From NCBI GenBank assembly GCA_001244265.2, contig CDLV01000008.1, positions 2,232,001 to 2,275,168 on the forward strand: 43,168 nt of DNA, written 5' to 3'. This stretch comes from Microbotryum violaceum. Lineage: Eukaryota. The notes under the pieces were generated by a model. The model was given only the letters and a program-made list of their open reading frames with translations. It searched no databases and was not told where the DNA came from. Position numbers and translations under genes: made by a program. The stretch's first letter is position 1. Each line of letters begins with the position of its first letter. This document shows, one piece after another, positions 1 to 43,168 of the stretch.

Positions 1-1015
1 TTCAATTCGGTATCCAACACTTTTGGCGTTGTTTCACCCGAGGTAGATGCACTCTCGCCAGATCCAAGAATGATGTCCCCTACTCTCAACTTTGTGAATT
101 CGAGCTTGCTTCGTAGGGTCCTAAAAAACCGGGGGGAGAAAAGAAAGGGGTAGAGGTGGATCAGTTTTTCGGATGCAAAATAGTCGAAGAGCGACTATCC
201 AACCATCCTCTTGCCGCGAACCGAAACCTAACCCTCACCTCCTGTACCCCTTCCTTTTCTTGAATTTTTCGACTTCAAACATCTTCCCTTTGATATGTTC
301 CAATACCAACACTTCAGCTTTGACTTCTCCTTCTTTGAAATAAGGTAACGAGTCGGGATGACGTTGCCAATCCCTTGGAACACCAGAAGCATCAATAATC
401 GTACGCGCCATGGGGGGACGTAATAAGGGAGTGGAAGTTTGGAAAGAAGATAATTTGGCAGAGACGGCTGAGGTAGGTCGAGGAGGAATTGAAGAGGGGG
501 AAGGACCGGCACGAAGGGTGTAATCGCGCGAACCGACTTCGAGAATACGGGTCAGGGAGATACGTTGACCTGCGCGAACGGATTTGAGCTTGGGGACGGT
601 GAGAACGTCGTGTGGGGTTAGGGTGTAACGACGTCCCATGAGGAGACAGGTGATGTAGTGCGACGGTTGCGAGGCGAGCAACTCCAAAGGGGAGGCACTG
701 GCTCGGCGGAGAAACGAGCTGAGATCAGTAACGGGCAGTGGGTGAACGCATGCGTAGGGTAGGGAACGTACCTCGTCGAGGGAAGCGGTTTGGGAGAAAG
801 AGCAGATAGCCGCTCGTGCTTGGGCAAGGTCGGAGGTAGACCTTGGTCACGCGATGTCGACGAGAAACTGCATCGCCAACTTGCAGCGACCGGCTTGGAC
901 GAGCGAGAGAACAACCACCGCGTCGGAGCTGAGCATGGGCAACTAGGATGATCAGTGAGAGCAAAAAAGTGTGGGCACGGGTTATTGAGATGTGCAGACC
1001 TATTGGGAACGACAT
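1..1015 (-). CDS. MRPL49: Mitochondrial ribosomal protein bL21m (L21p family); 3' end runs off the window
   Basis: Spliced model: ATG at 1015 (MSFPI|APTRWLFSRSSK..., presequence-like) with GT-AG introns near 999-929, 771-719 and 238-121. The core carries L21-type motifs HYITCLLMGRRYTLTPHD, ILEVGSRDYTLR and VLEHIKG...KKRKGYRR|TLRSKLEFTKLRVGDI. Confidence 0.85.
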
Positions 1016-5328: not shown

Positions 5329-6883
5329 TTACTTTTCCTCCGGCTTCTTGCAAACGAACAACATCATCGGCGTGAACAACTTCTCTCTACCTCCCGCGAC
5401 CAAGGCAACGGAGGCGGTAACGAGCGCTTCACCGACGTCGTGCGTTCCTTTGGGCACCATACCGATTTTCTCCAAGGCCCAAACGGTATTTTGCGTGCAG
5501 AACTTGCCGAAACGGGTCATGCGCCAGCACTTTTGCGGAGAAGGGAATGGAGGCGAAAAAAAAGTCAGCGATTGGACGTGTTTGGGAATCGGAAAAGGGA
5601 AGGAACGGGGCAAAAACACACGATCACGTAATCCCAAAGTGTTTGACATTTCTTCAAATCGCCTTCGAGCGGGTAGTACCACTTGACCTCGTCGTCGCGA
5701 TCGGCGAGATCCTCCTCGTGCAAGATCTCGAATCCTACATTTTGAAGGGCGGTGCGGCATGCGCCGATCGAACGCATCTCGGGGATACCGTCGCCGACTT
5801 CGATGCCGTGCGCGATCTCCTTGTGGTGAGGGATCTTTGGGTCCCATGCGTCGGTCATGCACCATTCGTAGACGCCGAACTGGGGGGGAAGGAGAGGAAC
5901 GGGGCAAAATAAGATTAGCCACCCGGGAAAAGAAGCCAAACGCGATCTAGTCCGGAACAAGCTTCACTCACGACTCCACCAGGTTTCAACACCTTCTTGA
6001 TCTCGTTATAACACCCTTCCCAATCAGGGGCATGACACGTCGCCTCGATCGCGTAAACGGCATCGAACGAGTTCTCACCAAACTGTTCGGCCAACTTCAT
6101 GAAATCCCCTTTTACGAACGAAACTTGATCACTGAGACCGGCTTTGGCGGTGTACTTGTTCGCACGACCGACTTGGAACTCGTTGTTGTTGACTCCGATG
6201 ATGTGCGCGTCGGTGAAACGTGCGATCTCGCGCGCGGGCCCACCGACACCGCAGCCGACGTCGAGGACGCGCATCTTGGGGCGGATACCCGTTTGTGCGG
6301 CGAGGTAGTGCTCGTGGCGTGCGATCGCTTGGTAGAACGCTTCGCCTTTGTCTGGTGGGAGGAGTCGAGAGGCGTGGAAGGAGTCAGGGCGTAGATCTTT
6401 TGGAAGCGTCGTCGCGGATCGGGAACAGGAAGAACACGTACAGTAGCGGCAAAAGTGGAACGAGGTTCCCCATCCGTACTCGTACAGCTCGGTAGCACCT
6501 GGAGAACACGAATCAATTCCGAAAAAGAGTCAGCATCCACTCGTACCGGCCCTTCCCGAACCCCCAACTCTCGCATCCCCAACGCGTTCTGCATCACCAC
6601 GCCACCATCCTCTCCTCTCCCCTGAAAAACCCTCTCCGTCCCTCAACCGGAGAAAGAGAAACGAACCATCATAATAACTATTAACGACATCCGTGTACAC
6701 ATCCTTCCTCTGCTCCGTCATTTCAGCCGTGTCATTCACCGAATTACGATCCCAGTGTTGGGTATAGGACGCGATCCCGGCGCGGTTACGCGCGTCACCT
6801 TTCGTTGGCGCGATCAACGCCGTTGAAGAACCATCCTTTTGGTGGTCATCGCTAGAACCATTCGTGCGAGGCGCGTTAACCAT
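5329..6883 (-). CDS. ERG6: Sterol 24-C-methyltransferase
   Basis: [37 protein letters not shown] motif [56 protein letters not shown] introns between these blocks. Confidence 0.97.
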
Positions 6884-9773: not shown

Positions 9774-11483
9774 ATGGCCTCGCTCACGCTCACTCACAGC
9801 ACTTGTGCCGGTAGGGCAGCTGCTCTCCTCGCTGCTGTCTACGGTCAATACGTTCCCGACTTGACCATCACCCACCACGACAAGGACAAGGTGAGCTTGT
9901 CAGATCGACGACCTCAGCTCGACACCGGAGCTGATGATTGGGCTTCGTTCGTCTCTGTCTCTCTCTCTCTCGTTCTCAGCTCGAATTCAAATCCGCTTCA
10001 TCGCAAACGTACACCAAGCTCGTCGATATCGCGAAAGCTCTCCTTGAAGCAGCAGGCAAGACGAACGATGCTCTCGGAGGCGCCTCGGACCAAGTGCAGC
10101 AGAGCGTATTGCACTACCTCAACCTAGTCGACGAGAACAAATTCGACGCAGACAAAGGGGCTGAGGTCAGTAAAGATAGGGGCTTCACAGGCTGGGGTGC
10201 TGGGTTAAGAGTGCATCAGCCAATTGACGAGATCGTTCTTTGCGAGCAGGCCGCCGATGCCGAATTGAGGACCAAGACCTTCCTCGTCGGCGAGTCCGTC
10301 TCGGCTGCAGATCTCGGTCTCTTTGCGGCCGTCCATCCGACCGTCGTACGTGTATCGAACCGGTTTTCGGAAGATGCTTGCACTCCCTGACGCTTTATCT
10401 CACCCCACCAGGCTTCGGCAACGCACAACCAACACTTATCACACCCTTCCCTATCCCGTCACTTTAACCACATTCAAAACCTACGCCTCGTCGCACCCCA
10501 CCTCTCGACCGTGTTCACCTCCACCCCCGAACCGGTCAAGATTGACGTCGAGAACGTACCCGTCGTCGAGATTAAGCAACAAGCCAAAGTGAAAAAAGCT
10601 CCTGCCGCCGCCGCCGCCGCTGCTGCTGCTACGGAGGCACCCAAGGAAGCGGGCAAACAGGCAAAGGCTGACAAGGCGCAGGTCGTAGAAGAGGTCAAGA
10701 AGGAAGTAGAAACCGTCGCCCCTATCGCCATAGCTGAGGGAACGACGTCGTCGGGGAAACCGAAAAAGGAGAAAGCGGAAAAGGTCAAGAAACCTACGCC
10801 TGCGGTACCGGTCGTCGAAGCGCCTGCACCTTGGATGATTGATTTGAGGGTCGGCAAGATCGTCGAGGTCGCGGTGCACCCTGATGCGGACTCGTTGTAT
10901 GTCGAAAAGATTGATGTGGGCGAGGAGGAACCGAGGACGGTCGTTTCGGGTTTGGTCAAGTACATGACCTTGGAGCAGAGTGAGTGCACAGTTTGAGTGG
11001 AGAGTATTTGAGACGACGTTGCTGATTTGAGCATGGATTCGAATCAACAGTGCGAGGAACTACGTTGATCACGGTGTGTAACCTCAAGCCGGCCAACATG
11101 CGCGGCGTCAAATCTTTCGCGATGGTGCTCTGCGTAAGACCTCGCTACATATTCTTGATCATCGAAAATTATAAATTGATCCGACCACTTTTTCCTCGCA
11201 GGCCACGGCAGCCGAAGGCAAGGAAGCGGGGATCGAATTCCTTTCCCCTCCAGAGGGTTCCGTCCCCGGTGATCGGGTTTATTTCGAAGGTTTCGAGGAC
11301 CAACAGGCGTTGGAGATGCTGAACCCCAAGAAGAAGATCTTTGAGACCGTTCAACCGGGGTTCACGACGTTGGAGAACCGGGTCGGCGCTTGGGTCGACA
11401 AGGAGAGTGGGAAGACGTACAAGATTGTGACGAAGAGAGGGGAGTGTAAGACTCAAAGTTTGGTCGGGGCCAGTTTGAGTTAG
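9774..11483 (+). CDS. ARC1: tRNA-aminoacylation cofactor Arc1p-like protein (GST-like N-domain plus EMAPII/tRNA-binding OB domain)
   Basis: GST-C-like [20 protein letters not shown], a Lys/Ala linker, then IDLRVGKIV...[46 protein letters not shown] and [14 protein letters not shown]; stop TAG at 11481-11483. Confidence 0.92.
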
Positions 11484-24427: not shown

Positions 24428-25307
24428 ATGCTTTTCAAGGTTTCTGCGGCCCTCGTGCTGACCTTGCTCTCGATCACCACTTCGGCCTCGCCCCAGAAGG
24501 CGGCAGCCGTCGAGCATGATGCGATGCCGTCCGCGCACCATCATGGGATGTCGTCCCGGCACCAGGACATGCCGTCCGCGCACAATCAAACGATGCCGTC
24601 CGCGCACAATCAAACGATGCCGTCCCCGCAGGCACTCCCCGGCCCGAGCGGTATCACCGTCACGCCCATGCCGCCGGTTCTGGGCTCTTTATGCAATACC
24701 AAGGTTTCCTGCGCGTTTCGCTCGAGACGGCGTCCATTGACGTTGTATTGGTTACTGCGAACAAGCTCAACAAACTTGTCGTGAGTGGTAAAGAGCCTCA
24801 ACCCTTGACAACGCCCCCCCCCTCTCTCTCTCTTCTCTCTTTCTCTCTCCTCTCTCTCCTCTCTCTCTCTGGCCCGCCAGCTCCAGAAAAACTCTTGTCT
24901 ACCTCCAAAGATCCAAGTATGAACTAAACCTGCTTCACACCATCGTACCAGCTTGCCCAAGATCTGTCTGCCATAAATGCGTCAAATTTCTTTGCAGCGA
25001 ATTTTAGGCTGCCCGTGGCTTACCACGTCACACACCAGGAGATGGGCAAACCCCTCCTGGCAAATGTGAGTTTCATTTTCGCCAACGACCGGAGTCTACT
25101 CCTCGTCAGACTGCTCTACGGTTTCAGACGATGCTAAGACCTTTCTCGTCGAATGGGTGGTTGTCCCACCAGCTTGACATCTACGAGCGTGAAAAGCAGC
25201 TCTTGCCCGACGGCAGCTCCAAGTTCCAGGTTCGCTACCTGTCGCAAGCGCCTTCCTTCCTGATCAACAACGCCAGGTACATCAAGGATAAGAAAATGAC
25301 CTCGTAG
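24428..25307 (+). CDS. Small secreted effector-like protein; frameshifted or dependent on a cryptic intron
   Basis: Signal peptide MLFKVSAALVLTLLSITTSA and 24-bp MPSAHNQT repeats. Downstream exons ..24780, 24952-25065 and 25128-25307 have GTGAGT/CAG sites and an open frame to TAG. The signal-peptide frame and downstream frame differ around 24650-24765. Confidence 0.7.
24813..24870. repeat. Poly-C plus (CT)n pyrimidine tract inside an intron of the secreted-protein gene
   Basis: Directly visible. Confidence 0.85.
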
Positions 25308-25564: not shown

Positions 25565-28500
25565 CAGGGAGTAACTTCAGGCGCGCGCGCACGCATGAGG
25601 CCCGCTTAGGCAAAGAAGTCGGCGAAGTTAGCAGAGGCGTGGGGGAAGTTAGTATTGGCCCACGGCTAGTTCTGGCTAGTTTGCCAAGGCGCGTGTGCTA
25701 ACTGCGGGACGGTCGTACGAGAGACTCTCCCTCGGCTCATTCGCGTGCTTTCGACTCATATACATGAGCCATCCCAATGCTCGGGTTCCCAACCGAATCG
25801 ACATGGCTGCGTCATGTAACCTCGCCATTTGATCACCGTCATTCATCCAGCCCGGTGCCGAATGATCAAGACGATGGAGACGCGATGGCGATCGACGAGG
25901 ACCGAAGATGACGCAGCGTCTTGGATATAACACCTCTCGACAATTTCAAGACTTCAATCTAAACCACTGAGTCGGTGATCCGCTGAAGTCATTGAGTGAC
26001 CAAGGACCACCGAAGCGGGCGCGAGGTCGTCCAGCCCTATCGGAGCAACAGAAGGCTGCAAGAAATGAAATGGACAAGAAGAAGAAGCAAGCGTTGAGAG
26101 AAGCGAAGGAAGCTCAGAGAGATCTGCAGAGAGAGGCACAGCGGGTCAAGGATCAGGCCGAGAAGGAGCGGCTTGAAGCCAAAGCCGAAACGGAACGCCA
26201 AGCTGCCGTCCTCAGGCAAGAGGCACGTATGCAGATGAGTTCAACCCGCTCAAGCCTGGCGATCATTCATTCCTACGTGCTGTTCGCTGTGCCGATATTC
26301 GTGATCTATATGACTGCGAATAGAACCCGTCTGATAGAGAGTACACCGTGAGTGCACATCCCGCAGCTATGCCTTCGCGATTCGCTTGATCTCGCTTGAT
26401 CTCGCCGATTGAACTCTAAGTACGATTAATGCTCAAACACTATAGAAACAAACGAAACTATCGTCGCCACCACAAGGGCGGTGATGAGCTAGTTCACGGT
26501 TTTCTGCCTGTCAAGTCGGCTTGGACTAGGCTCTATGACGGCTGCATCTCCAACGCCAATCTGGACATCTACGAACCACAATTCTTCTATTGGGATCCCC
26601 TCCTAATGATCGGCCAGCCGGATGACAAGCGAGCGGGCGTCGGCCTGCGGTGCATGGAGTGCGAGCTTAACGAAGCCGTCCCAAAGGCATGTTGAGGCTG
26701 AACGGGTTCTTGGATCGGCCGCGCCGAGCGTGTGGTCTCCGCGAGTTCGTCTATCTCATCGGCCGCTCTTACAACTGCGACAACAAGAAGTGCTCCAAGA
26801 CGTATCGGTCTTGGTCGCCAGAGGTCCTTGACCCACTGGACCCATCACTGCGCTCGATGTTCCCTTCTATTTGTCACATCGCACCGCCATTACCTCGGAG
26901 GTGTTCGAGGTAGTGCGATCTTCCTTCCACTACGGTCTGGGAGCCGAGCAAATTTCCGACATGCTTGTCTGCTTTCGTCGTGGCGCCCACGACAGGCTAG
27001 AGCTCGACTATAGGTCGGCCATGTGCGCGCCAAAAGCCGGGACCTTATCAGGACATCAGTGATTGAGATGACTCGGCGGGCAATTGCAGCTATGTGCCAA
27101 CATCGAAGGTTCTTGCAATTTTTTTCAATGCGAAAATAGAAGAGTAAGGCCGGATTGTAGTATCGAGCACTGCGAATACTTGCTTCTAATCTTCTCTGCT
27201 GACCCTCTTTGCTTTGCCCATTCTCAGACACGAGTCGCTCATACGCCACCATGTTTCATTGGCCCCTTGCACAATCATGTCACGCGATCACAGCTGCAAG
27301 TTGAGAACTTGGAAAAGGGGCAAGTAAACTCTTGATCAATTCAAATTGTGCTAACCCAATGAGTCTCTCTTCATCTCAGGTCCCGAAGCAAATCGCCAAG
27401 ATCAATGGCATTCCTCCCTTTCATGCGCTCCTGATGGTCGGAAACGAGTACGGCAAAGTTCGACTCGCCGTCCTCACCGCGACCAAAGGCCACGCGTCGT
27501 TCGAATCACCACTCGAGGACATGTCGAAGCATCTGAAATTGTATGGTCACGAACAACCATCCATCTGCTACACGGATCAGCCCGGCCAGGACACTACATT
27601 CTTGATAGAAACGCTCCCCTCGCTTGCTCCGACTCTCGGCACCAACGCAGGCCCGCGCCAAGGCGACCTCATGCTACCTCCTGAGACGACCCCTGTTCAG
27701 GTGAACACCGTTTCCGCGTTGACCCAAGTGCTGAGGCAGATAACAGAAAACATTTCCAAAGATGGAAAACTTGTGGTTGGTGTCGACGCCGAATAGGCAA
27801 CCGCTCCCGCAAACTCGTATCGCAACGTGGCCATTGCGGCCTCTAAGAAAGCCGTTGACGTCGTCCAATTCGCCTGGGAATCACTGGAGTGCGACTTGTT
27901 CATTCATGTGATTCAAGTGAGCTTTTCGTACCCGTGCTCTTTCACATAAAGTCGAACAAAAAACTTACCAAATTATTGCGTGTCTGCAGCTCTCGCAGAT
28001 CATACAAAAGTGCTTCAAATGGCGTTTGCCCCCGCCCTTGCGGCATTTTCTCGATCGCGCGGACATCTTGAAGGTGGGCGTCGGCGTTGCTGGCGACCTC
28101 ACTCGCATCGTCACGCCATCACGAACGCGGAGCGCTGGGAACTTGCGATCGATGAGGAGAATCCGATCAGTCTTACCGAAACTTCAAGCATCGCGGTGGA
28201 TTGGATCTGGCGCAGCACGCGAACCTGAACGGGCCACATGCTCGGGAGAGGAGTTGGATCTCGAAGCCTCGCGCACTTTTCGAAACGCTTCCTCAAGAAA
28301 CGGCTGCCGAAAGACGAATCAATTCATCGGTCAATGTATTTGGCTGAGACGATGCTGCCCCCACGCCACATCATGTACGCTGCACTCAACGCCTACGCGT
28401 CGCTTCTCGTCTACAAGGCGATCAGTAAGTGTCACACGCGACCATTGTCGCCCCTGGTACTTCCACGTGTGGGCACTCAAGTCGCTATCATATATGAACC

Positions 28501-29945
28501 TGATCGTTCAATCGCACGTGGTGTCATCCAGACAGTTGATTCCTCGATCGACGAAACGTGCACGCCTCCATCCGAGTTTCACGGATTCAAATGGGACAAG
28601 AGCCGCGCTGTCGTTGACATCACACAAATCCTCATTCCTGGAGCGCTCGTTCCCGAATACAACACCAATGCGATGACTTTCCACAGCGCGATCTTTTGGC
28701 CTTACGAGCGTTCTCAATTCAACAGAACACTGACAGCAACGTTCGCTCCCAATGCGGTGACGGATCATTCCCGTTGCTTTTTGCGCTCGATGCTCTCATG
28801 GTCGACTTGGACGATGAGGTCACCATCGAGAGTTCCGTCCACAGCTCAGCTCACACGTTCACGTCCGCTCACAAGCCGTCGCTGTCCTCGGCTCAAATAT
28901 CTTCGCCTTCAAAAGCACTGGACGTTGGCGCCGTAGCGAATTCCTGCACGAGAGAAACGGAGATGGAAGAGCACACGGAGGACTTCGACGACAGTCTCGA
29001 TGCGGCGACCGCTGAGATCGAAGAAGCGCTCTTACTCGAACGTTGCGAGACGACTGCGGTTGAGATCTCGGCCATCTTAGACGCTGCCGACGGAAACAAA
29101 GGTTGGTCACTCCGGTTCCTCGGTTGAGTTTGATTTAAGGCTCATTCGATTTTCATCTCTTTCATCTGGTCAGCCTCGTCGCTCGATGATCCCCAACTCC
29201 GAATCCTCATGGATCCCTTCCATTTTTTCCAGAGGATCTATCTATCGAAAAAGCACGGAGCTACGAGAGCTTTCCTTCGCGCTCTCTCCGATGCCATCTC
29301 TGTCGTCAACCTAGACGACAAGCACCTAGTGTCGATACGACTCGCCAAAGCGATGATGACTTTCGACGAAGCCACACGGTCGCCCGCTCACGCCAAATAC
29401 ATCTGGAAGCGTGTCCGACGAACGATTCCTCCTCCAAGCATTCTTGAGCCATTGGTCAGGGAAGTTTTCGAGGCGTTCGGGTCGTTGCTCGATGCTAAAA
29501 CAAAGCAGCCCCTCTTCAATAAGGCTGCACTCCTCGTCACGAAAAGGTGTCTCGAACTCGTTCGAAAGGGACAGCTTTCTGATCCAGTGGGCATCGAGCT
29601 TTACACCGACCTCGGACCTTGTCGTGGACCTGATGAAACAGCTGATGATGGTGTCCGCTTGTATTCATGTCGGCGCGGCACGAACGGCCTCGAAGGTGGC
29701 ATCCATCGAAATCTCCGCGCGCGCTTCGCTAAGTCAGGCGTCACTCCGCGTCATGCAAACGCTCGCCTGCTGGACTATGTACTAGGACACAATCTTACAG
29801 TCAGTCGGCACGTTTATCGGTCGTGTTGACCACAAGCAACAAGAAGCTCATTCACGATTCAAACTTGCAGGTTGGCACATACAATCGCACTGGGGTGGCT
29901 TTCACCGGTCATTTCGACTTATGGCTCACTCTGGATCTGTATCGA
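25565..29945 (+). mobile_element. 3'-truncated DNA transposon encoding a DxxH-type DDE transposase with an embedded exonuclease
   Basis: GC-rich end with repeated GAAGTT/GCTAGTT motifs at ~25570-25690, then the transposase. No right end; the sequence passes directly into a host gene fragment. Confidence 0.65.
25908..29945 (+). pseudogene. DUF6729-like DDE transposase with AT-hook, Cys cluster and DnaQ/WRN-like 3'-5' exonuclease insert
   Basis: KRARGRP; PQFFYWDPL..LRCMEC..LIGRSYNC..C; SRDHSCK|VPK (D 27286); ICYTD (D 27575). Exonuclease motifs VGVDAE*, KVGVGVAGDL, YAALNAY. Then MDPFH (29209), YSCRRGTNGLEGGIH and GHFDLWL. Frameshifts near 26690 and 26870; stop at 27794. Confidence 0.8.
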
Positions 29946-30649
29946 CTCCCCTCCCCTCAACGCGCTCCACAACCCTTCCCGATCCGATCCGAGTGAAACT
30001 CCCTCTCCCAGGTTCCTACCAATACCAGAATAGCGCCGTTGCCCTGCTCGCTGTCGAACTGCTCCGTACCTCCCGTCGTCCTCTTTCCCTTGTCCCGGCT
30101 TTGTCGAACGTTTCTCCTCTGGCCTACCGAAAAGGAATCGAAGTGACTCGGTGGGTAGGACGATTGGATTGGGTCAACTTTTCCTCTGAGCTTAGTAGGA
30201 CCAAACACCCCATCTTGATCGACGGAGCGCACAACCCTTCAGCAGCCGAACAACTTCACCAGTACCTACACACCCTTGCCGAGGACTCGGCACCGACGAC
30301 GTTGATCACTGCTATTTCGGCCCCGAGACCACCGACGGTACTCTTGGAACCCCTTTTAAGACCCCGAGGATCCATTCGCAAGGTCGTGTGTGTAAGTTTT
30401 AGTCGTCCCGATGGGATGTCTTGGATAGAACCGACGCCCCCCGAAGAGATGAGGGAGCTCCTTCTTCGTGACCCAGCGTTCGAGCACGTGCAAGAGGTGC
30501 AGGTGTTTGGGGAGGTTGAGCAGGCTTTGAAGAGTTTAGGGGAGGCGGATCGCGTCGTGGTGGCGGGGAGTTTGTATTTGGCCGCGGATGTGTATCGGTT
30601 GATCAGAAGGGGGAGGGAAGGGGCCGCGGAGGCGGAGGCGGATGCATGA
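29946..30649 (+). pseudogene. FOL3: C-terminal half of dihydrofolate synthase (FolC/FOL3-like); N-terminal ATPase half missing
   Basis: LPGSYQYQNSAVAL, RWVGRL, ILIDGAHN (DHFS/FolC-type rather than DGAHT) and VVAGSLYLAADV; frame open to TGA 30649. No upstream GTNGKGS P-loop anywhere in the window. Confidence 0.85.
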
Positions 30650-30832
30650 GTTTGCGTAGGCGGCTTCCTTTGTGGCTATTATAATGTTGTCATACTCTTC
30701 TAACCCCCTCTCGAAATGAAAGTACGAAGGCGTTGTACATTCGTGTATAAGATTACAGGGACAAAGTGAACTGCAACTACACACGAAAAAAAAAATGGCG
30801 CACAAGATCAACGAAGCTACAAGACCTTCACC

Positions 30833-33642
30833 TCATTCCCCCGCCTCCTCCTCCTCCTCAACCAGCTGAAAAGGCCACGCCAGGACCTCATCCTTATACT
30901 CGGCCTCACTCCTCGTCTCCAACAGATAACGACTGAAAAAAACACCCACCAGAGCCGCAAGACCGCCAAAACGGAGTACCCATACGACGTCGTTGGCTCC
31001 TCGAAGACCGTCTGTGGGTTCGGAGTCGCTACCTCCTCCGCCTTCGGAAGCGAAGGTGGAGACGAGGAGTTCGAGTCCGCGTCGCAGCACGAGATCTGTC
31101 GATTTCCCATTCCCTTCGTTTACGGAACGTTCCTTCTCCAATAGAGAGAAGATGCAAGCCGCCACGACAGCGACGAAGAACTGCGGCATGCAACACGCTT
31201 GGTTGTGGATGCCTAGAATCGTACCTCCCGCTGTAGAGCTCGAGTTCGATGCGGCTGGATCGGAATGCGCTTCTCGATGGCCTCGCTCTTCGATTCGTCC
31301 TTGAGAACCACGTGGCGAACCCCTAGAAACCCCCTCAGGCCTCGATGACAAAAGCGGTGAACATTCCGCCAACCCCTGTCTGACTCTCTCTAGCTGCGAA
31401 GAGGAATGCGCAAAAGGTGGCGGGGAGGCGAAAAGGGTTTCTTCTTCGATCCCCGATCGAAATGCGTACTCCCGTAGTTTGTTCGGGAGGGCGCTTGAGA
31501 GGGACTCGTACGTGCGTCTTCCGAGGAGGGAAGAGAGGATGCGGTTGGAGCAGATGCGGGCTCGATTTCGCGGATGGATTCCATGACGAGGGCGAAAGGG
31601 ACCTAAAGTGAAAGCGATACAAATCAGCAAGGTTGCCCCGAAAGAATATCGTCCAGGTACTCACCCAACACTGCACTGCCCAAGAAACGCCACAGAACGC
31701 CACAATACTCATCGCCCCTTCTACCGTCTTGACCCAAAACGTCGCGACCATGGCAGAAGCATACAACACGGTCCCCAAAGTCCACATATTCCTCGGTGTC
31801 ATGTTCGCCAATAAATGCCTCATCAGCCTACCCTTCTTCGACGTCCTTGATAGTCGCCTGTCGACAATTTTTCTGCGGCCTAGAGTCGTTAACCAGGGTA
31901 GCAACGATCCCGACCCGAGGGAGACGAGCGCATAAAGAAGCAGAGCCAATGAACCGGCCCTCGTCGCCGTATCCGTCGAAGGTTCCTCTTGATCAGGCGG
32001 CAGACTCGCATAAAGTACTTCGGCGACGTACGACGTCGAATAAAACAAAAAGGGGAACCAAGCGGTCCATTGGAAGAATTGGAGATAACAGACCCTTCGT
32101 ACGGAGAGGGGGAGTTCGCGAGTCGCTTTGCGGACGTTGATCCAGATGCTGGACCAGCGGATCCCCCGGTTTGCTATCTGGAGCTCGGAGGAGGAAATGC
32201 GCTCGACTTGGGTCCAACAGGTGATGGCGACGCAGAGGGTCATGACGACGCAAGCCATGACGGCCAATTTACGGAACTGACCTCCACCAACCCAGGAAAG
32301 GGCGGCCCAATGCCCTAGATCGATGTAACCCGCGCCGTAGCCGAAGATGTTGGCGAAATGGGACATGCGACCGTGCCAGGCGTTGGCGACGTTTTGTTGA
32401 TGCCTTGGGGATTGGTCGAGGATCAGGGCCTAGGGGGTGAGATGCGGTGTCAGGATCAGACCGTGCTGCGTCATGAGCCTTGGGTAGAACGGATCACCGA
32501 CTCACGCGCAACGAGGCCTGTAGTCCGTTGAGACTGAAATCGAGAATGTAAAAGCCTAGGACCCCAATCGCGATCGCGCTTGCTCGAACGTGGTCCTCCT
32601 GCTTGGGATCCCAATCGCCCAGGCCGGACCACCCACTCAACAAGGAGCCAATCTCGTTGGCATAAGCGACGAAAAGAGTCGAGACGACGACCGAGGCAGT
32701 TGAGGCGGCGATGAACGCTCTTCGTCTGTACTTTGTTTTCGATGCATCGGACAAGGCTCCGATGATAGGTTGCATGATCAAGCCTGCCAACGGTCCTGCG
32801 AGCCATACGAGGGAAGTGGCGCGTTTGGTCAGACCGAGGGACAAGAGGTAAGGTGTGCCAAACGCCATTTCGACTGTCCACGCGAGTTGAGCACCGGCTA
32901 GACCGAGGGTCAACTTGACGAGGTCAAAGGTGGTGAGGTCGGGGGTGGAGGAGGAGGTGCCGGTGCTGGTGTGGTCTAGGGGGTGCTTGTCCGAGTTGGT
33001 GCGCGTGGGATGTGGTTGGGACTGTGGTCTGTAGCCCATGATCCCCTGTGCGACCCGGCGACAGCTGGTGTCATCGTCCTCTTCCTCTTCGTCGTCGTCG
33101 CCTCCGGCTGCGAGACGTTCGCCCGTTGAGGCGTAGTATTCTTCTTCACGGTGGGGTGGGGTGCCAATCGGGGCGGTACGTGGGGGGCCGGCTGTGAGGG
33201 GTCTCCGACTGCCCAGCAGAGTGATGGCGGATGCTACTCGGGTGCGCCGGTTCGACGAAGGTGACGAGGCAGAACAAGAGGACGATGACTCCCGGTGAGG
33301 TGTTGTGTTCGTCACGGTGGTCGTCGTGGGCTGGTTCTGGTTCTTGTGGGCGCTCCCGCCTGCGCCTGGTCGATGAGGACTCGAACGATTCCACAAGTTT
33401 GACGTCGCATTGGAGAGTGAAGAAGGCGCAAACTTGGGCGAAGCGTGTTGAGGTGGTGCACTCCCAATGTGGCCCAAATCAGCGAACGACTCGTAGGTGG
33501 TGTGGTGTGCAGGCAGGGTCGGCGTCGTAGGTGTGGTCGGTGTCGTTGCGGTCGGTGGTCCGCACGAGGTGCGACGAGAGGTGCCGTTGTTGTTGGCAGT
33601 GCTGCCACGAGATGAACGCGTCGAGGCTCGTCGCGAGCTCAT
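30833..33642 (-). CDS. SUT1-like sucrose/alpha-glucoside:H+ symporter (GPH/MFS)
   Basis: GAQLAWTVEMAFGTPYLLSLGL, VWLAGPLAGLIMQPIIGALSD, RRRAFI, LDFSLNGLQASLR, QFFQWTAWFPFLFYST, ATRAGSLALL, GTILGIHN..PQF; ATG 33642. Confidence 0.93.
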
Positions 33643-33812
33643 GGCGTGGGGGAGGGTGGGTGTGACTGTGCGACGGGGCAGCAGGCCCTCCACTGCACCG
33701 TGGTCCGTGTGGGAGGAGGCGGTTGGAAAGGAGACCGACCACACTTTCAACTCGGCGCTGGCCCGTCGGCTTTCGGAGTTTGGCCGAGGAAGGACCCCCG
33801 AAAGCCCAGCCG

Positions 33813-33950
33813 GAGGCGCATTTTTTTTTTTTTTTGACATTTTGAGGACCCAAAATTCTGAAAATCGTCGAGGCGCATTGCAGAAAATTGACATTTTGGG
33901 ACAAAACACACGTTTCGCCCCCGAGGCGCATGTCCAGATTTTGACATTTT
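33813..33950 (+). repeat. Three spaced copies of bipartite motif GAGGCGCAT-N9/12-TTGACATTTT
   Basis: Copies start at 33813, 33870 and 33923; an inverted variant lies at ~42658-42686. Confidence 0.75.
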
Positions 33951-34399
33951 CCCGTAAGTCGGCCCAATTTTGGCCTACCCTGAGCAACCTTCGGCATGAC
34001 TTCGGGCCCGTTCGCCTTCGCTTCGAGACGCGTTTAGCGATGCTCGCGCCTGAACAAGTCACTTAGTACTAGCCATCTTCGGTAATCACTTGAGTTAAGT
34101 GGCTGTGAGGGATTAGGCCGATTCGATATTGAAGGGGCGCAGGTTCCGTTCCGCTTCACCGACTTTCGTCCGAGATTGGAGCATAGCACGACAACATCAT
34201 CCCATGCAGGCCTTGAACGATGCCTTCGATTGATTATTGCCGCTCACCAACATGAACATGACGATCGCCGAGCTCCTCGCCTTCGATGTCGCTCCCGCCG
34301 ACGCGTCTCTTCACATCGAGTTGTCCAAAGACGAGCACACCCAGTACTCGACCTTATCATCTACTCGATGCCGTTGAGAAGACAAACAGCTGGGTTAGA

Positions 34400-35454: not shown

Positions 35455-36060
35455 AGTATATACGTATCATAGGTGGGGCACAGGCCAATTCTGGGATACG
35501 TTTTGGAATAGAACCCCAAATTCCCAGTGAAAATGAAAATTGACAGTGCACGGTCAATTGCTCGTGCACTGCTAAAATCCACTTTTTCGACTCTGAAGGG
35601 CGGCACAAGCCAAAAACCGTCAAATCGAGGTGCACGGTCAATTGCTCGCGCACTGCTGAAATCCACTGTATATATGGGCAATTGCCAAATACCACATGGC
35701 ACAGACTCCTGAGTATATAGGTATCATAGGTGGGGTAGAGCCCAATTCCGGGATACGTTTTGGAATAGAACCCCAAATTTCCAGTGGAAATGAAGTTGAT
35801 AGTGCACGGTCAATTGCTCGTGCACTGATGAAATCCACTTATTTGGCAAAACCGTCAAATCGAGGTGCACGGGAAATTCCCCGTGCACTGCTGAAATCCA
35901 CTTTTTCGACTGTGAAGGGCGGAACAGGTCGAAAACCGTCAAATCGAGGTGCACGGGAAATTCCTCGTGCACTGCTGAAATCCACTTTTTCGACTCTGAA
36001 GGCCCCAACAAGGCGAAAACCGTCAAATCGAGGTGCACGGGGAATTCCTCGGGCATTGCG
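35455..36060. repeat. Composite minisatellite: two ~90-bp leader blocks plus six 24-bp palindromic cores GTGCACG-N10-CGTGCAC
   Basis: Leaders start at 35455 and 35712; cores start at 35546, 35630, 35802, 35865, 35949 and 36033. Confidence 0.92.
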
Positions 36061-39707: not shown

Positions 39708-42239
39708 CTACTCGCAAAGGGCCTTAAAAGCCGCCTGGACATGTTCATACGACATCTGACCCGAGTTCCAAAGCGACGCAAGTTCTGGCTCTGTATTGAT
39801 GGGTCTCACCCTGGCGAAAGACCAATCCAGCGAGCAATTTTGCTGCAGGACACTCAGAACCTTCTCCACGCCAGACCAACGAGATGCGCATGCGTTCAGG
39901 AGCTCCTCGAAGCCGGGTTCCGTAGACAGCCAACCTTTCCTGATTGCTGCATCTCTGAGATCCTTGGCATTCCACGCGTTCCAGATACGCGCGGCGTCCG
40001 GCTTCTCGAAAAGTCGCGCGTCGGCAGATTCAGATTCAGGTTGGAAAGCCGTACGGCACGCCACATAAAAGAATGATTCTACATCATGCCAGCGCTCGTG
40101 CACCACACCCTCGGTTGCGGGGCTGAGCAGGAGTCGAGAGATGTAGGGTAGCGTGCCCTGTGGTTGATCATTGTACAGGGGAAGGATGGAAAGGAGTTAG
40201 GTGAGACCAAGAACGTGTGAAGGGCTAGCAAGGACACGAGAAGAACGTACCGAGCGGCTGAGGCGACTCTCTTCTTCCGCCGTTCGGGCCTTCTTCACCG
40301 CCAGATTGTAATCAATCAACACTCCATCGCCTTTACGGTCCACCATGACGTTGCCATAGGACACGTCCCGGTGGATGAAGCCGTAATTCCAAAGCTGGCG
40401 ATGCCCTGTCACGCAAGGCAAAGGGTCGTCAGTGTTGGCACACCCTTCAGCGCGCTGTCCCGCTCTGCTCTGAGCACTCACCCTCAATCGCACCCTCGAG
40501 AGCGCGCGCGAGCTGCTTGGTGGTCTTGAGTGTGGCGAGTGGGTAGTAACGTTCTTCGTGAACGACGACCTCCCTGGCCCGTGGGGTGCAACCGGCGAGG
40601 GATTCGTTGCCGGGTAGGAACACGGGGAGGGTCCTATATTCGGTGCGAAAGACGCCGACCAGTGGAGCGAGCCCGCGAGGTCTCTTTTCTTGGATCACGT
40701 TGCGGATCTCGGCCAAGTCCGAGTTGCGCGACTCCTCGACCCAGATGATCGTCATTGCGAAGGTCCTGATGTTGGCGCCCTCAGCAAGTTTGACCTCGTA
40801 TGTCGACGTTGCGCGGCCGCACTCTCTTTTTCGACGAAAGATGAGCTCCTTGATCTTGACGTTGGACATCGTCGTTGCTCCCCAGATAAACTCTGAGGCC
40901 GCCGGCGGGAAGAAGTCGGGGCAGGGCGTGAACGGGCCGTAGCGGTCGTCGAGCGAGGTTGTGGTCGCTAGAATGCCGTTAAGCCGATCGCTGTGTTGGA
41001 CGAGACGGTACAAGAACGTCGACAGCTCTCCATTCTCTTCGGTGACTGTTCTAGATTTGGTAGAGAACACTCCGCAAGCAGACATTACGTAGACCTTGAG
41101 ACGTTCGCCGCGAAGGGTGAATCCGATCGCATGTTCGCGAATCGGCGTTGCGAGGAGTGCCGACAACCGTCGGAACAACTGGCGCTCGGCGTTGGAGGTG
41201 CCGGCTTTGGTCTCGCCGACGGCGGCCACTTGCGTAAAGGAGCGTTTGGCCTGGTTCAGGTCCACCTTGTCCTTGTCCTTGACCTTGGCCGTGTTCGTGC
41301 TGTCTTCTTCTGCGTTGTTGTCCTCGTCGTGAGGCTGGCCCTTGCCGTTTTCGTTCGCGTTGGAGTTCACGTTGGTGGCGGGGCCCGCATCGGCGTCGAG
41401 TTTCTTGGCCGGATCGGCGTGACTGGGAAGGGCCCATACATTCGGGAGGGTTGGGTCGTGCGCGACCGCAGCGTGGGTCAAGAGCACGACGTCGGCCGTC
41501 TTCTCGGTCGTCTCCACACGGTCAGGTGCGACGCTGATGTACTGGGGCGAGTTCTGGCAGGCGACCAGTCGCCGGTCTCCAGTCTAGAGGTCCAACAGTA
41601 AGACAAACGGCAGTGAGAAGGCGAGTCAGCTCTCGAAGGAACATACACCCTCGATGTCACGCAATCCAGGCGTCGACTCACCGTGTTGATGACACCTGCT
41701 ATGACCTCGCCCAGCGCTTCTTCGGTGCCCATCTTGAACTCCTTGGGCCAGATCTTGTTAGCGAGCTCGTCAGCGGTCGGATGGCCGAAGAAGTAGGCCT
41801 CGAGGGCCGCACAATGTTTTTGGTCCATCTGGACCGCTTCGGAGATCCTCTCGGCTCTGTCCAATGCTCGCTCGTGCGAGGCCGCCTCCCGGCGCGATCG
41901 TAATGGGGTCGATTGAGTCGACGATACCAAGGGAGAGACCGCGTCCCTGAGTTCGGCGAGGTCGTACGCGTTGGCGGTTGCGCTTGAGGCCGGGGCCGAG
42001 TTTTCAGCCGCTGAAATTGAGGTCGAGGGCGAGGGCGAGGGCGAGGTCGAGGTCGAGGCAAGAGCCTGAGCGGGCGAGTCGACGCCGTGTGCCACGGGCT
42101 TCGCGTTCCTTTCAGCGATGCGCGCGCTCCTGCGCATTGGCCCTGTCGACGCGCCGGCGCTCGGCGCGCGAGGTTCGTGTCGGCGCGGGCGGTCACTGCA
42201 ACGGCCCCAATTGGGGCGTGGGCCAGTGGCGTCAGTCAT
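39708..42239 (-). CDS. Fungal-type protein kinase (FunK1/Pkinase_fungal), multi-exon, apparently intact
   Basis: ECGRATSTY, LEGAIEG|HRQLWNYGFIHRDVSYGNVM, GVLIDYNLA, RS|GTLPYIS, HERWHDVESFFYV; start uncertain (ATG 42239 or 42137). Confidence 0.9.
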
Positions 42240-42593: not shown

Positions 42594-43106
42594 CGCCTCC
42601 TCGTGGAACAACGGTCTTTTCTGAAGTGTTTGTCGGATTTTTACACCCTCTTTTCCAAAGATGTCGGCTTTTGCACATGCGCCTCAATATCTCACCAAAA
42701 GTTGCTCTGCATGCTCCAAAACTTGCTCAAAAGTCGTCGAAAACGCGTTCCGTTTGCGGGCGCGCGGCGGCCGGCCGATCGAACATAGCGAAAAACCCCC
42801 CGGGATGGGGCGGATTTGCTATGAAAGTGGCTTGCCGCATCTTGCCGCGCGCGTCGCTTCAACTGTCTTCGGCTGGTCTCCCAGCCTCTTGAAAAGCTTC
42901 AGCCTTCCTTGCATATTCGGTGATGGGCTCGTGACTCGCTTGTCAGACTTGGATTTTGCTGATTTTGGGCGCATTGTATCCGCGGTGTCGTTCTTGCGGC
43001 TTGTAGAGGCTCTACCGGCGGCATCCGCGGGTCGGGCACGCTCTGAAGGACGTCAAATCGTGGCTCGGCATGTGCGCTCGTGGTAATAATGCGCTCGTCG
43101 GAAGTG

Positions 43107-43168
43107 AGTATATACGTATCATAGGTGGGGTACAGGCCAATTCCGGGATACGTTTTGGAATAGAACCC
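43107..43168 (+). repeat. Direct copy of the palindromic-array leader, truncated by the window end
   Basis: 60 of 62 nt identical to 35455-35516. Confidence 0.95.

Follow-up and report, generated by a model that had tools for sequence, protein, structure and literature searches.

A dihydrofolate synthase copy without its ATP-binding part, joined to a truncated repeat-family gene in Microbotryum

A stretch of 43,168 nt from Microbotryum violaceum (assembly GCA_001244265.2, contig CDLV01000008.1, positions 2,232,001 to 2,275,168; the whole stretch is referred to as the window) contains a place where a gene of a dispersed repeat family stops abruptly and the C-terminal part of a dihydrofolate synthase (DHFS; FOL3 in yeast, FolC in bacteria) follows. 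The locus raises the question of whether an essential folate gene was broken here, or whether the fragment is a relic beside a working copy. The first-pass annotation had described FOL3 as cut in half by a transposase, and had offered a sheltered haplo-lethal allele, a rearrangement breakpoint or a captured fragment as readings; the last two survive. With a probability of about 80%, 29948-30649 represents a 5'-truncated, enzymatically dead DHFS paralog at the boundary of a duplicated or rearranged segment, joined to a truncated repeat copy. Coordinates of the features are given in Table 1.

The exact break is between 29947 and 29948, where the 3'-truncated repeat-family gene gives way to the final 233 codons of DHFS. 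Frame 2 of the plus strand is open from 29786 to a TGA at 30647-30649 and is colinear with DHFS from about 29948, in agreement with the earlier placing of a switch at about 29940-29950 into an open DHFS frame of about 700 bp. The ATG at 29921 and the 242-aa open reading frame (ORF) beginning there, with nine codons from the element, were also found as described. The element itself is read in frame 3, which from 29871 reads VGTYNRTGVAFTGHFDLWLTLDLYRL and runs to a stop at 29994-29996. As this frame differs from that of DHFS and the element ORF ends at that stop, there is no in-frame fusion; with this refinement, the observation made in the annotation is correct. Contigs of four public sequencing runs (four studies) were compared with positions 28000-32000. 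One contig of run X1 stops at 29947, and another, as well as one in DNA run X6, leaves the window after 29947. In the element frame, the loose ends of X1 and X6 read RQKTAHLLP, compared with RRKTAAYLP and RRKTLAFLP in two Microbotryum relatives. The loose ends therefore extend the element frame in another copy that continues, and the break falls between 29947 and 29948. A repeat search around 29947 found no terminal or inverted repeat, as the annotation had also noted. There is no target-site duplication at 29947 either, and a natural end of the element is unexpected there, the copy being cut inside its ORF. Because the cut lies inside the coding sequence of each partner and no terminal repeat is present, the junction would be a non-homologous join and not the insertion of a transposon into a working gene.

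The truncation of the left-hand partner is evident from its relatives. In tblastn, the proteins P0218, P0223, P0217, P0274, and P0238 matched 26501-29948 in several frames, which corresponds to about residues 393-1369 in proteins of 1563-1606 aa. All five cease aligning at 29930-29948, about 200-335 residues short of their own ends; the four long ones stop at about residue 1238-1369 of 1515-1643, and P0217 at residue 369 of 705. Since all of them end mid-protein at this place, the copy in the window is cut inside its own coding sequence. The family is large and dispersed. A search with a 231-aa ORF at 29134-29829 gave 1154 cluster representatives at E<=1e-3, of which 108 reach E<=1e-30. Copies are located in M. 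saponariae (Chr1-3, Chr3-3, and Chr12-2) and in M. silenes-dioicae (C001 and C006). The full-length relatives have 1500-1650 aa. According to Pfam, four of six have DUF6729 together with DNA_pol_A_exo1; of the other two, one shows the exonuclease domain without DUF6729 and one no domain at all. No Pfam match was obtained for four element ORFs of the window, and 24 further window ORFs gave nothing naming the element. A search of the Atlas with the C-terminal part of the element had a best score of 0.80, which is a lead only. The annotation had read VGTYNRTGVAFTGHFDLWLTLDLYRL as transposase. Repeat-family sequence is indeed present there, but no transposase domain was found in the element ORFs, in the relatives by Pfam, or in the Atlas search; the relatives have DUF6729 and a 3'-5' exonuclease only. 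The left-hand partner is a probable mobile-element protein. No literature using the term DUF6729 was found, and the protein collection contains no exact match to the 242-aa ORF or to a 206-aa element ORF.

Several further features of the family were recorded. The Atlas also has clusters of the DUF6729/3'-5' exonuclease family with Chordata as the commonest phylum, and one member of the family cluster, P0366 (1902 aa), carries an Exo_endo_phos domain. In M. saponariae, family copies are located on the same contig as DHFS (A1: Chr12-2g03941, DHFS g03884; A2: g03442 and g03445, DHFS g03504). In run X6, many element sites in 28330-29871 have two letters at about equal depth (47/91, 58/117), with two versions of 28997-29172 and a single version right of the junction; the pattern fits a second close element copy in that genome. 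Just upstream of the element homology, at 24500-24631, there are four copies of a 39-nt unit with spacings alternating between 24 and 45 nt.

The homology of the right-hand partner to DHFS is clear from its 93% identity. The intact copy compared with it is MVLG_06732 (KDE02735.1), a DHFS of 508 aa from the haploid strain M. lychnidis-dioicae p1A1 Lamole. M. saponariae DHFS aligns with residues 279-510 to 29951-30646 (201/232 identical), and M. intermedium DHFS with residues 243-479 to 29939-30631. When two full-length DHFS proteins were used in tblastn, the N-terminal half (residues 1 to about 275) was not found anywhere in the 43,168 bases, so the earlier observation that the ATP-binding half is lacking stands. 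Self-comparison of the window revealed no second DHFS or element copy in it. The Mur_ligase_M domain occupies residues 58-310 of MVLG_06732, and the fragment begins at residue 276. The intact protein covers positions 1-399 of the 400 in TIGR01499 with 262.8 bits (cutoff 162.65), whereas the fragment fits the C-terminal part of this FolC model only, at positions 222-399, and its 69.2 bits are far under the cutoff. With Mur_ligase_C the fragment scores 22.7 bits (E=1.9e-4) against a gathering score of 28.4; MVLG_06732, with 21.6 bits, is also below it. The motif GTNGKGS, which we take to be the P-loop, is present in the intact DHFS proteins within the residues missing from the fragment. With its ATP-binding domain absent, the fragment cannot be a ligase and would not be a functional member of the DHFS family.

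Folate synthesis is predicted to be carried by MVLG_06732, elsewhere in the same haploid genome. This protein belongs to a 90% identity cluster of five members, which is represented by M. saponariae DHFS and also includes a 508-aa protein of M. silenes-dioicae; among the full-length members, that of M. saponariae is located on Chr12-2 and that of M. silenes-dioicae on a contig of 1.0 Mb. No literature on Microbotryum dihydrofolate synthase, on MVLG_07211 (the public gene model that crosses the junction), or on this locus was found. A second DHFS model of M. saponariae A2, P0214 (Chr3-1g05700, 479 aa), agrees with the Chr12-2 copy residue for residue as far as ...VVCVGFS, after which an unrelated tail follows. 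From this alignment it is a 3'-truncated partial duplicate, a mirror image of the 5'-truncated one in the window, and DHFS fragments may recur in Microbotryum.

The fragment is also different from the working gene in its rate of change. Over 233 residues it is identical to MVLG_06732 at 217 (93.1%; 203/218 in blastp), to the M. silenes-dioicae protein at 218 (93.6%), and to M. saponariae DHFS at 86.3%, while the intact proteins of the two sister species agree at 99.6%. With M. saponariae as the outgroup for polarising the changes, 13 derived residues were counted in the fragment and two in the intact lineage (binomial p=0.007; 12 versus 2 and p=0.013 when the first residue is left out). The two intact-lineage changes, W to C and K to E, are common to M. 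lychnidis-dioicae and M. silenes-dioicae, and the replacements in the fragment include residues invariant in five other full-length Microbotryum proteins. Since the copy arose, the fragment thus seems to have evolved at about six times the rate of the working gene. The copy itself seems to have arisen after the split of M. saponariae and before M. lychnidis-dioicae and M. silenes-dioicae diverged. The lack of stops had been taken as a sign of a recent break. In a neutral, substitution-only simulation with indels left out, 47% of sequences gained a stop by 13 residue changes and 53% were still open, so the open frame argues neither for recency nor for function. The 13 versus two changes, with the two common to both sisters, point instead to an old, relaxed partial paralog, and the break would not be recent.

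On the right, the fragment is followed by a convergent gene for a SUT-like transporter, which is spliced in the RNA-like contigs of X1 (minus-strand joint from 31600 to 31663). The annotation had suggested checking whether FOL3 and the SUT1-like gene are adjacent in relatives. This is so in four of 13 metagenome DHFS loci (L001, L005, L006, and L007), where DHFS is followed by a reverse-strand SUT-like gene, and L001, with 57% identity, is the closest metagenome DHFS locus; L006 and L007 are nearly the same. The transporter is therefore placed, from its conserved order, as the probable ancestral convergent neighbour of DHFS, kept by the fragment. The sequence preceding DHFS in the metagenome loci had no credible match in the window, so colinearity with the ancestral locus begins exactly at the junction. 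A processed (retro-) pseudogene was considered and rejected, as the native downstream neighbour follows in conserved convergent order.

Table 1. Features around the junction in the window (aa, amino acids; X1 and X6, public sequencing runs)
Feature	Position	Strand	Basis or detail
3'-truncated dispersed repeat-family gene (DUF6729/3'-5' exonuclease family)	26501..29947	+	split over several frames; tblastn of five relatives
Public model MVLG_07211 (KDE02219.1, 516 aa), chimeric	28798..30646	+	exons 28798-29100, 29173-29799, 30029-30646
Intron of element transcript, GT..AG	29800..29870	+	X1 joint 29799->29871; splice letters checked
242-aa ORF	29921..30649	+	ATG and first nine codons are element sequence read in the DHFS frame
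Junction of truncated element and truncated DHFS	29947..29948		loose ends of X1 and X6, ends of five relatives, DHFS homology start at 29939-29951
DHFS (FOL3/FolC-family) fragment	29948..30649	+	last 233 codons and stop, residues 276-508 of MVLG_06732; without Mur_ligase_M
SUT-like MFS/GPH transporter gene	~30836..34062	-	weak MFS_1 and MFS_2 matches; convergent with DHFS fragment

The public contigs document the junction and point to transcription of the left-hand partner. Twenty runs from nine studies carry the stretch, and 14 of them have at least half of the sampled words of 29400-30700. A contig of 281 nt in run X16 spans 29850-30130 with 0 differences, with 98 and 183 letters on either side of the junction. 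A contig of X1 begins at 29918 with 30 element letters and runs through the whole DHFS fragment into the next gene. Run X15 has both sides of the junction at 95-99% likeness, yet no bridging contig. In addition to the element intron in Table 1, X1 contigs skip 29100-29171 (29099 joined to 29172; GT..AG) and 31601-31662 (CT..AC). X1 is regarded as RNA-like by its GT..AG joints only, none of the runs being recorded as RNA; its contigs carry no strand, and rare splice forms can drop out. In the four runs no contig entered 29948 from a different sequence, and 29948-32000 was seen in one version only; the known intact DHFS did not come up in this comparison either, so no inference on the copy number of the fragment or the transporter is drawn from them.

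UniRef gives MVLG_07211 the name 'Mur ligase C-terminal domain-containing protein'. The model is annotated in the same strain as the intact DHFS, and all 516 of its residues match window frames exactly. It joins repeat-element exons to the DHFS frame by a predicted intron at 29800-30028. This intron is not among the joints of X1, which uses 29799->29871 and so ends the element ORF at 29996.

Three readings would give the junction a different weight, and none of them is favoured. Misassembly is unlikely in the extreme. Assemblers can be misled by repeat copies, and in X1 and X6 the de Bruijn graphs have a branch point precisely at 29947, but the X16 contig bridges the place without a difference, an X1 contig has 30 element letters before the fragment, the stretch recurs in the runs of nine studies, the public model crosses the junction, and the window contains no N letters. 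That the strain's sole DHFS gene was lost here, as a sheltered, mating-type-linked haplo-lethal allele, has just as little probability. Yeast fol3 deletions are lethal without external folates and the fragment has no ATP-binding domain, both of which would suit such an allele, but p1A1 is a cultured a1 haploid according to PMC4469406, and the intact MVLG_06732 in the same haploid genome refutes the idea; an intact FOL3 elsewhere in that genome was what the annotation itself had named as refuting it. Somewhat less improbable, though still very doubtful, is that a new chimeric gene functions here, with either the fusion MVLG_07211 or the 242-aa ORF yielding a protein that relies on the Mur-ligase C-terminal domain. 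This would account for a frame open over 233 codons, for the transcription and splicing of the element part with RNA-like contigs across the junction region, and for the existence of an in-frame public model. Against it, the splice observed in X1 puts the element ORF in the other frame with a stop at 29994-29996, and the intron of the model is not among the joints (although rare forms can be lost from contigs). Among the replacements, in excess at 13 to 2, are residues invariant in the five other full-length proteins, a frame would stay open by chance in about half of cases, and, as the contigs are strandless, coverage could be explained by the convergent transporter transcript.

There remains the order of events. 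The simplest history would be one segmental duplication with its left breakpoint at DHFS codon 276, which took the downstream neighbour along. The duplicate may have landed in a repeat copy, or a later deletion may have run into one, with non-homologous joining at 29947|29948; the fragment would then have drifted under relaxed constraint, while MVLG_06732 kept folate synthesis. Partial duplicates and unprocessed pseudogenes occur at breakpoints of segmental duplications or rearrangements in repeat-rich fungal regions, and the locus is an ordinary relic of this known kind, a gene duplicated in part and without processing, at its junction with a repeat. As in other cases of this kind, one end is cut in coding sequence, the downstream side still has its native flank and neighbour, the partner is an unrelated truncated repeat without terminal repeats, the protein evolves faster, and an intact parent exists elsewhere. 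It is unlike them in having a frame that has stayed open, within transcribed sequence, and in being joined to a member of a little-known repeat family. Conversely, the window could be the original DHFS locus, from which the full copy (MVLG_06732) was duplicated elsewhere before the 5' half was lost by deletion or rearrangement into a repeat copy. This is unlikely, though more probable than any of the three readings above. The fragment retains the DHFS-transporter adjacency of relatives, its neighbourhood contains repeat-derived sequence, and by its number MVLG_07211 is close to MVLG_07149 and MVLG_07150, the HD genes described in PMC4469406, among small scaffolds. But gene numbers are no map, and those neighbouring MVLG_07211 appear there only, in unrelated contexts. 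Furthermore, two events would be needed, compared with one for a segmental duplication with a breakpoint inside DHFS, the upstream DHFS neighbour of the metagenome loci is not found in the window, and full-length members on M. saponariae Chr12-2 and the 1.0-Mb M. silenes-dioicae contig suggest that the intact copy is at a conserved location. A special form of this history, rather improbable, would place the ancestral DHFS locus in the non-recombining mating-type region, where it decayed after a back-up copy had arisen in recombining DNA and where the relic is still transcribed as a chimera; an essential gene would then have escaped a degenerating fungal mating-type chromosome. Some points weigh against the segmental duplication as well. 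Nine of the 13 metagenome loci have no transporter beside DHFS (seven with some downstream flank, two without flank), and the age argument has two residues as its whole basis. The 233 codons without stop or frameshift, in RNA-like contigs, leave room for function. No intact-DHFS contig matched the fragment at >=90% likeness, though the gene must be in those genomes, either because its DNA identity is lower than its protein identity or because such contigs were filtered. The comparison with MVLG_06732 is one at the protein level.

The locus can also be compared with the mating-type chromosomes of these fungi. PMC4469406 and PMC7898863 describe degeneration and rearrangement of Microbotryum mating-type chromosomes, with repeats and broken genes, and the first of them (Perlin et al. 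2015) gives 41% transposable element content for the non-recombining region of M. lychnidis-dioicae. The species is the same, and repeat-rich surroundings and a broken gene copy are seen in both; a place on that chromosome is at most possible for the window. The difference is that no essential function is lost at the window locus.

Ordinary genes flank the repeat block. In the left third of the window there are genes for mitochondrial L21 (Ribosomal_L21p, 235-846, minus strand), a sterol methyltransferase (Methyltransf and Sterol_MT_C, 5329-6529, minus strand), and a tRNA_bind domain protein (10391-10996, plus strand), and an ORF of the Pkinase_fungal family is at 40447-41583 on the minus strand. 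Degenerate direct repeats with 80-89% identity were found at 35455-36059, in a low-GC stretch (43-47% GC at 34-36 kb), and their first 62-64 bases recur at 43105-43168, the end of the window, with 95-97% identity.

For the biology of the anther-smut fungi, the result is mainly a correction. The folate pathway of this strain is unbroken, and the locus is no candidate for the long-sought haplo-lethal factors. The public model MVLG_07211 is flagged as chimeric, in part repeat-element gene and in part DHFS fragment. The locus also provides one precisely mapped non-homologous junction, and a marker that apparently predates the divergence of M. lychnidis-dioicae from M. silenes-dioicae; these may be of minor use for reconstructing rearrangements in these genomes.

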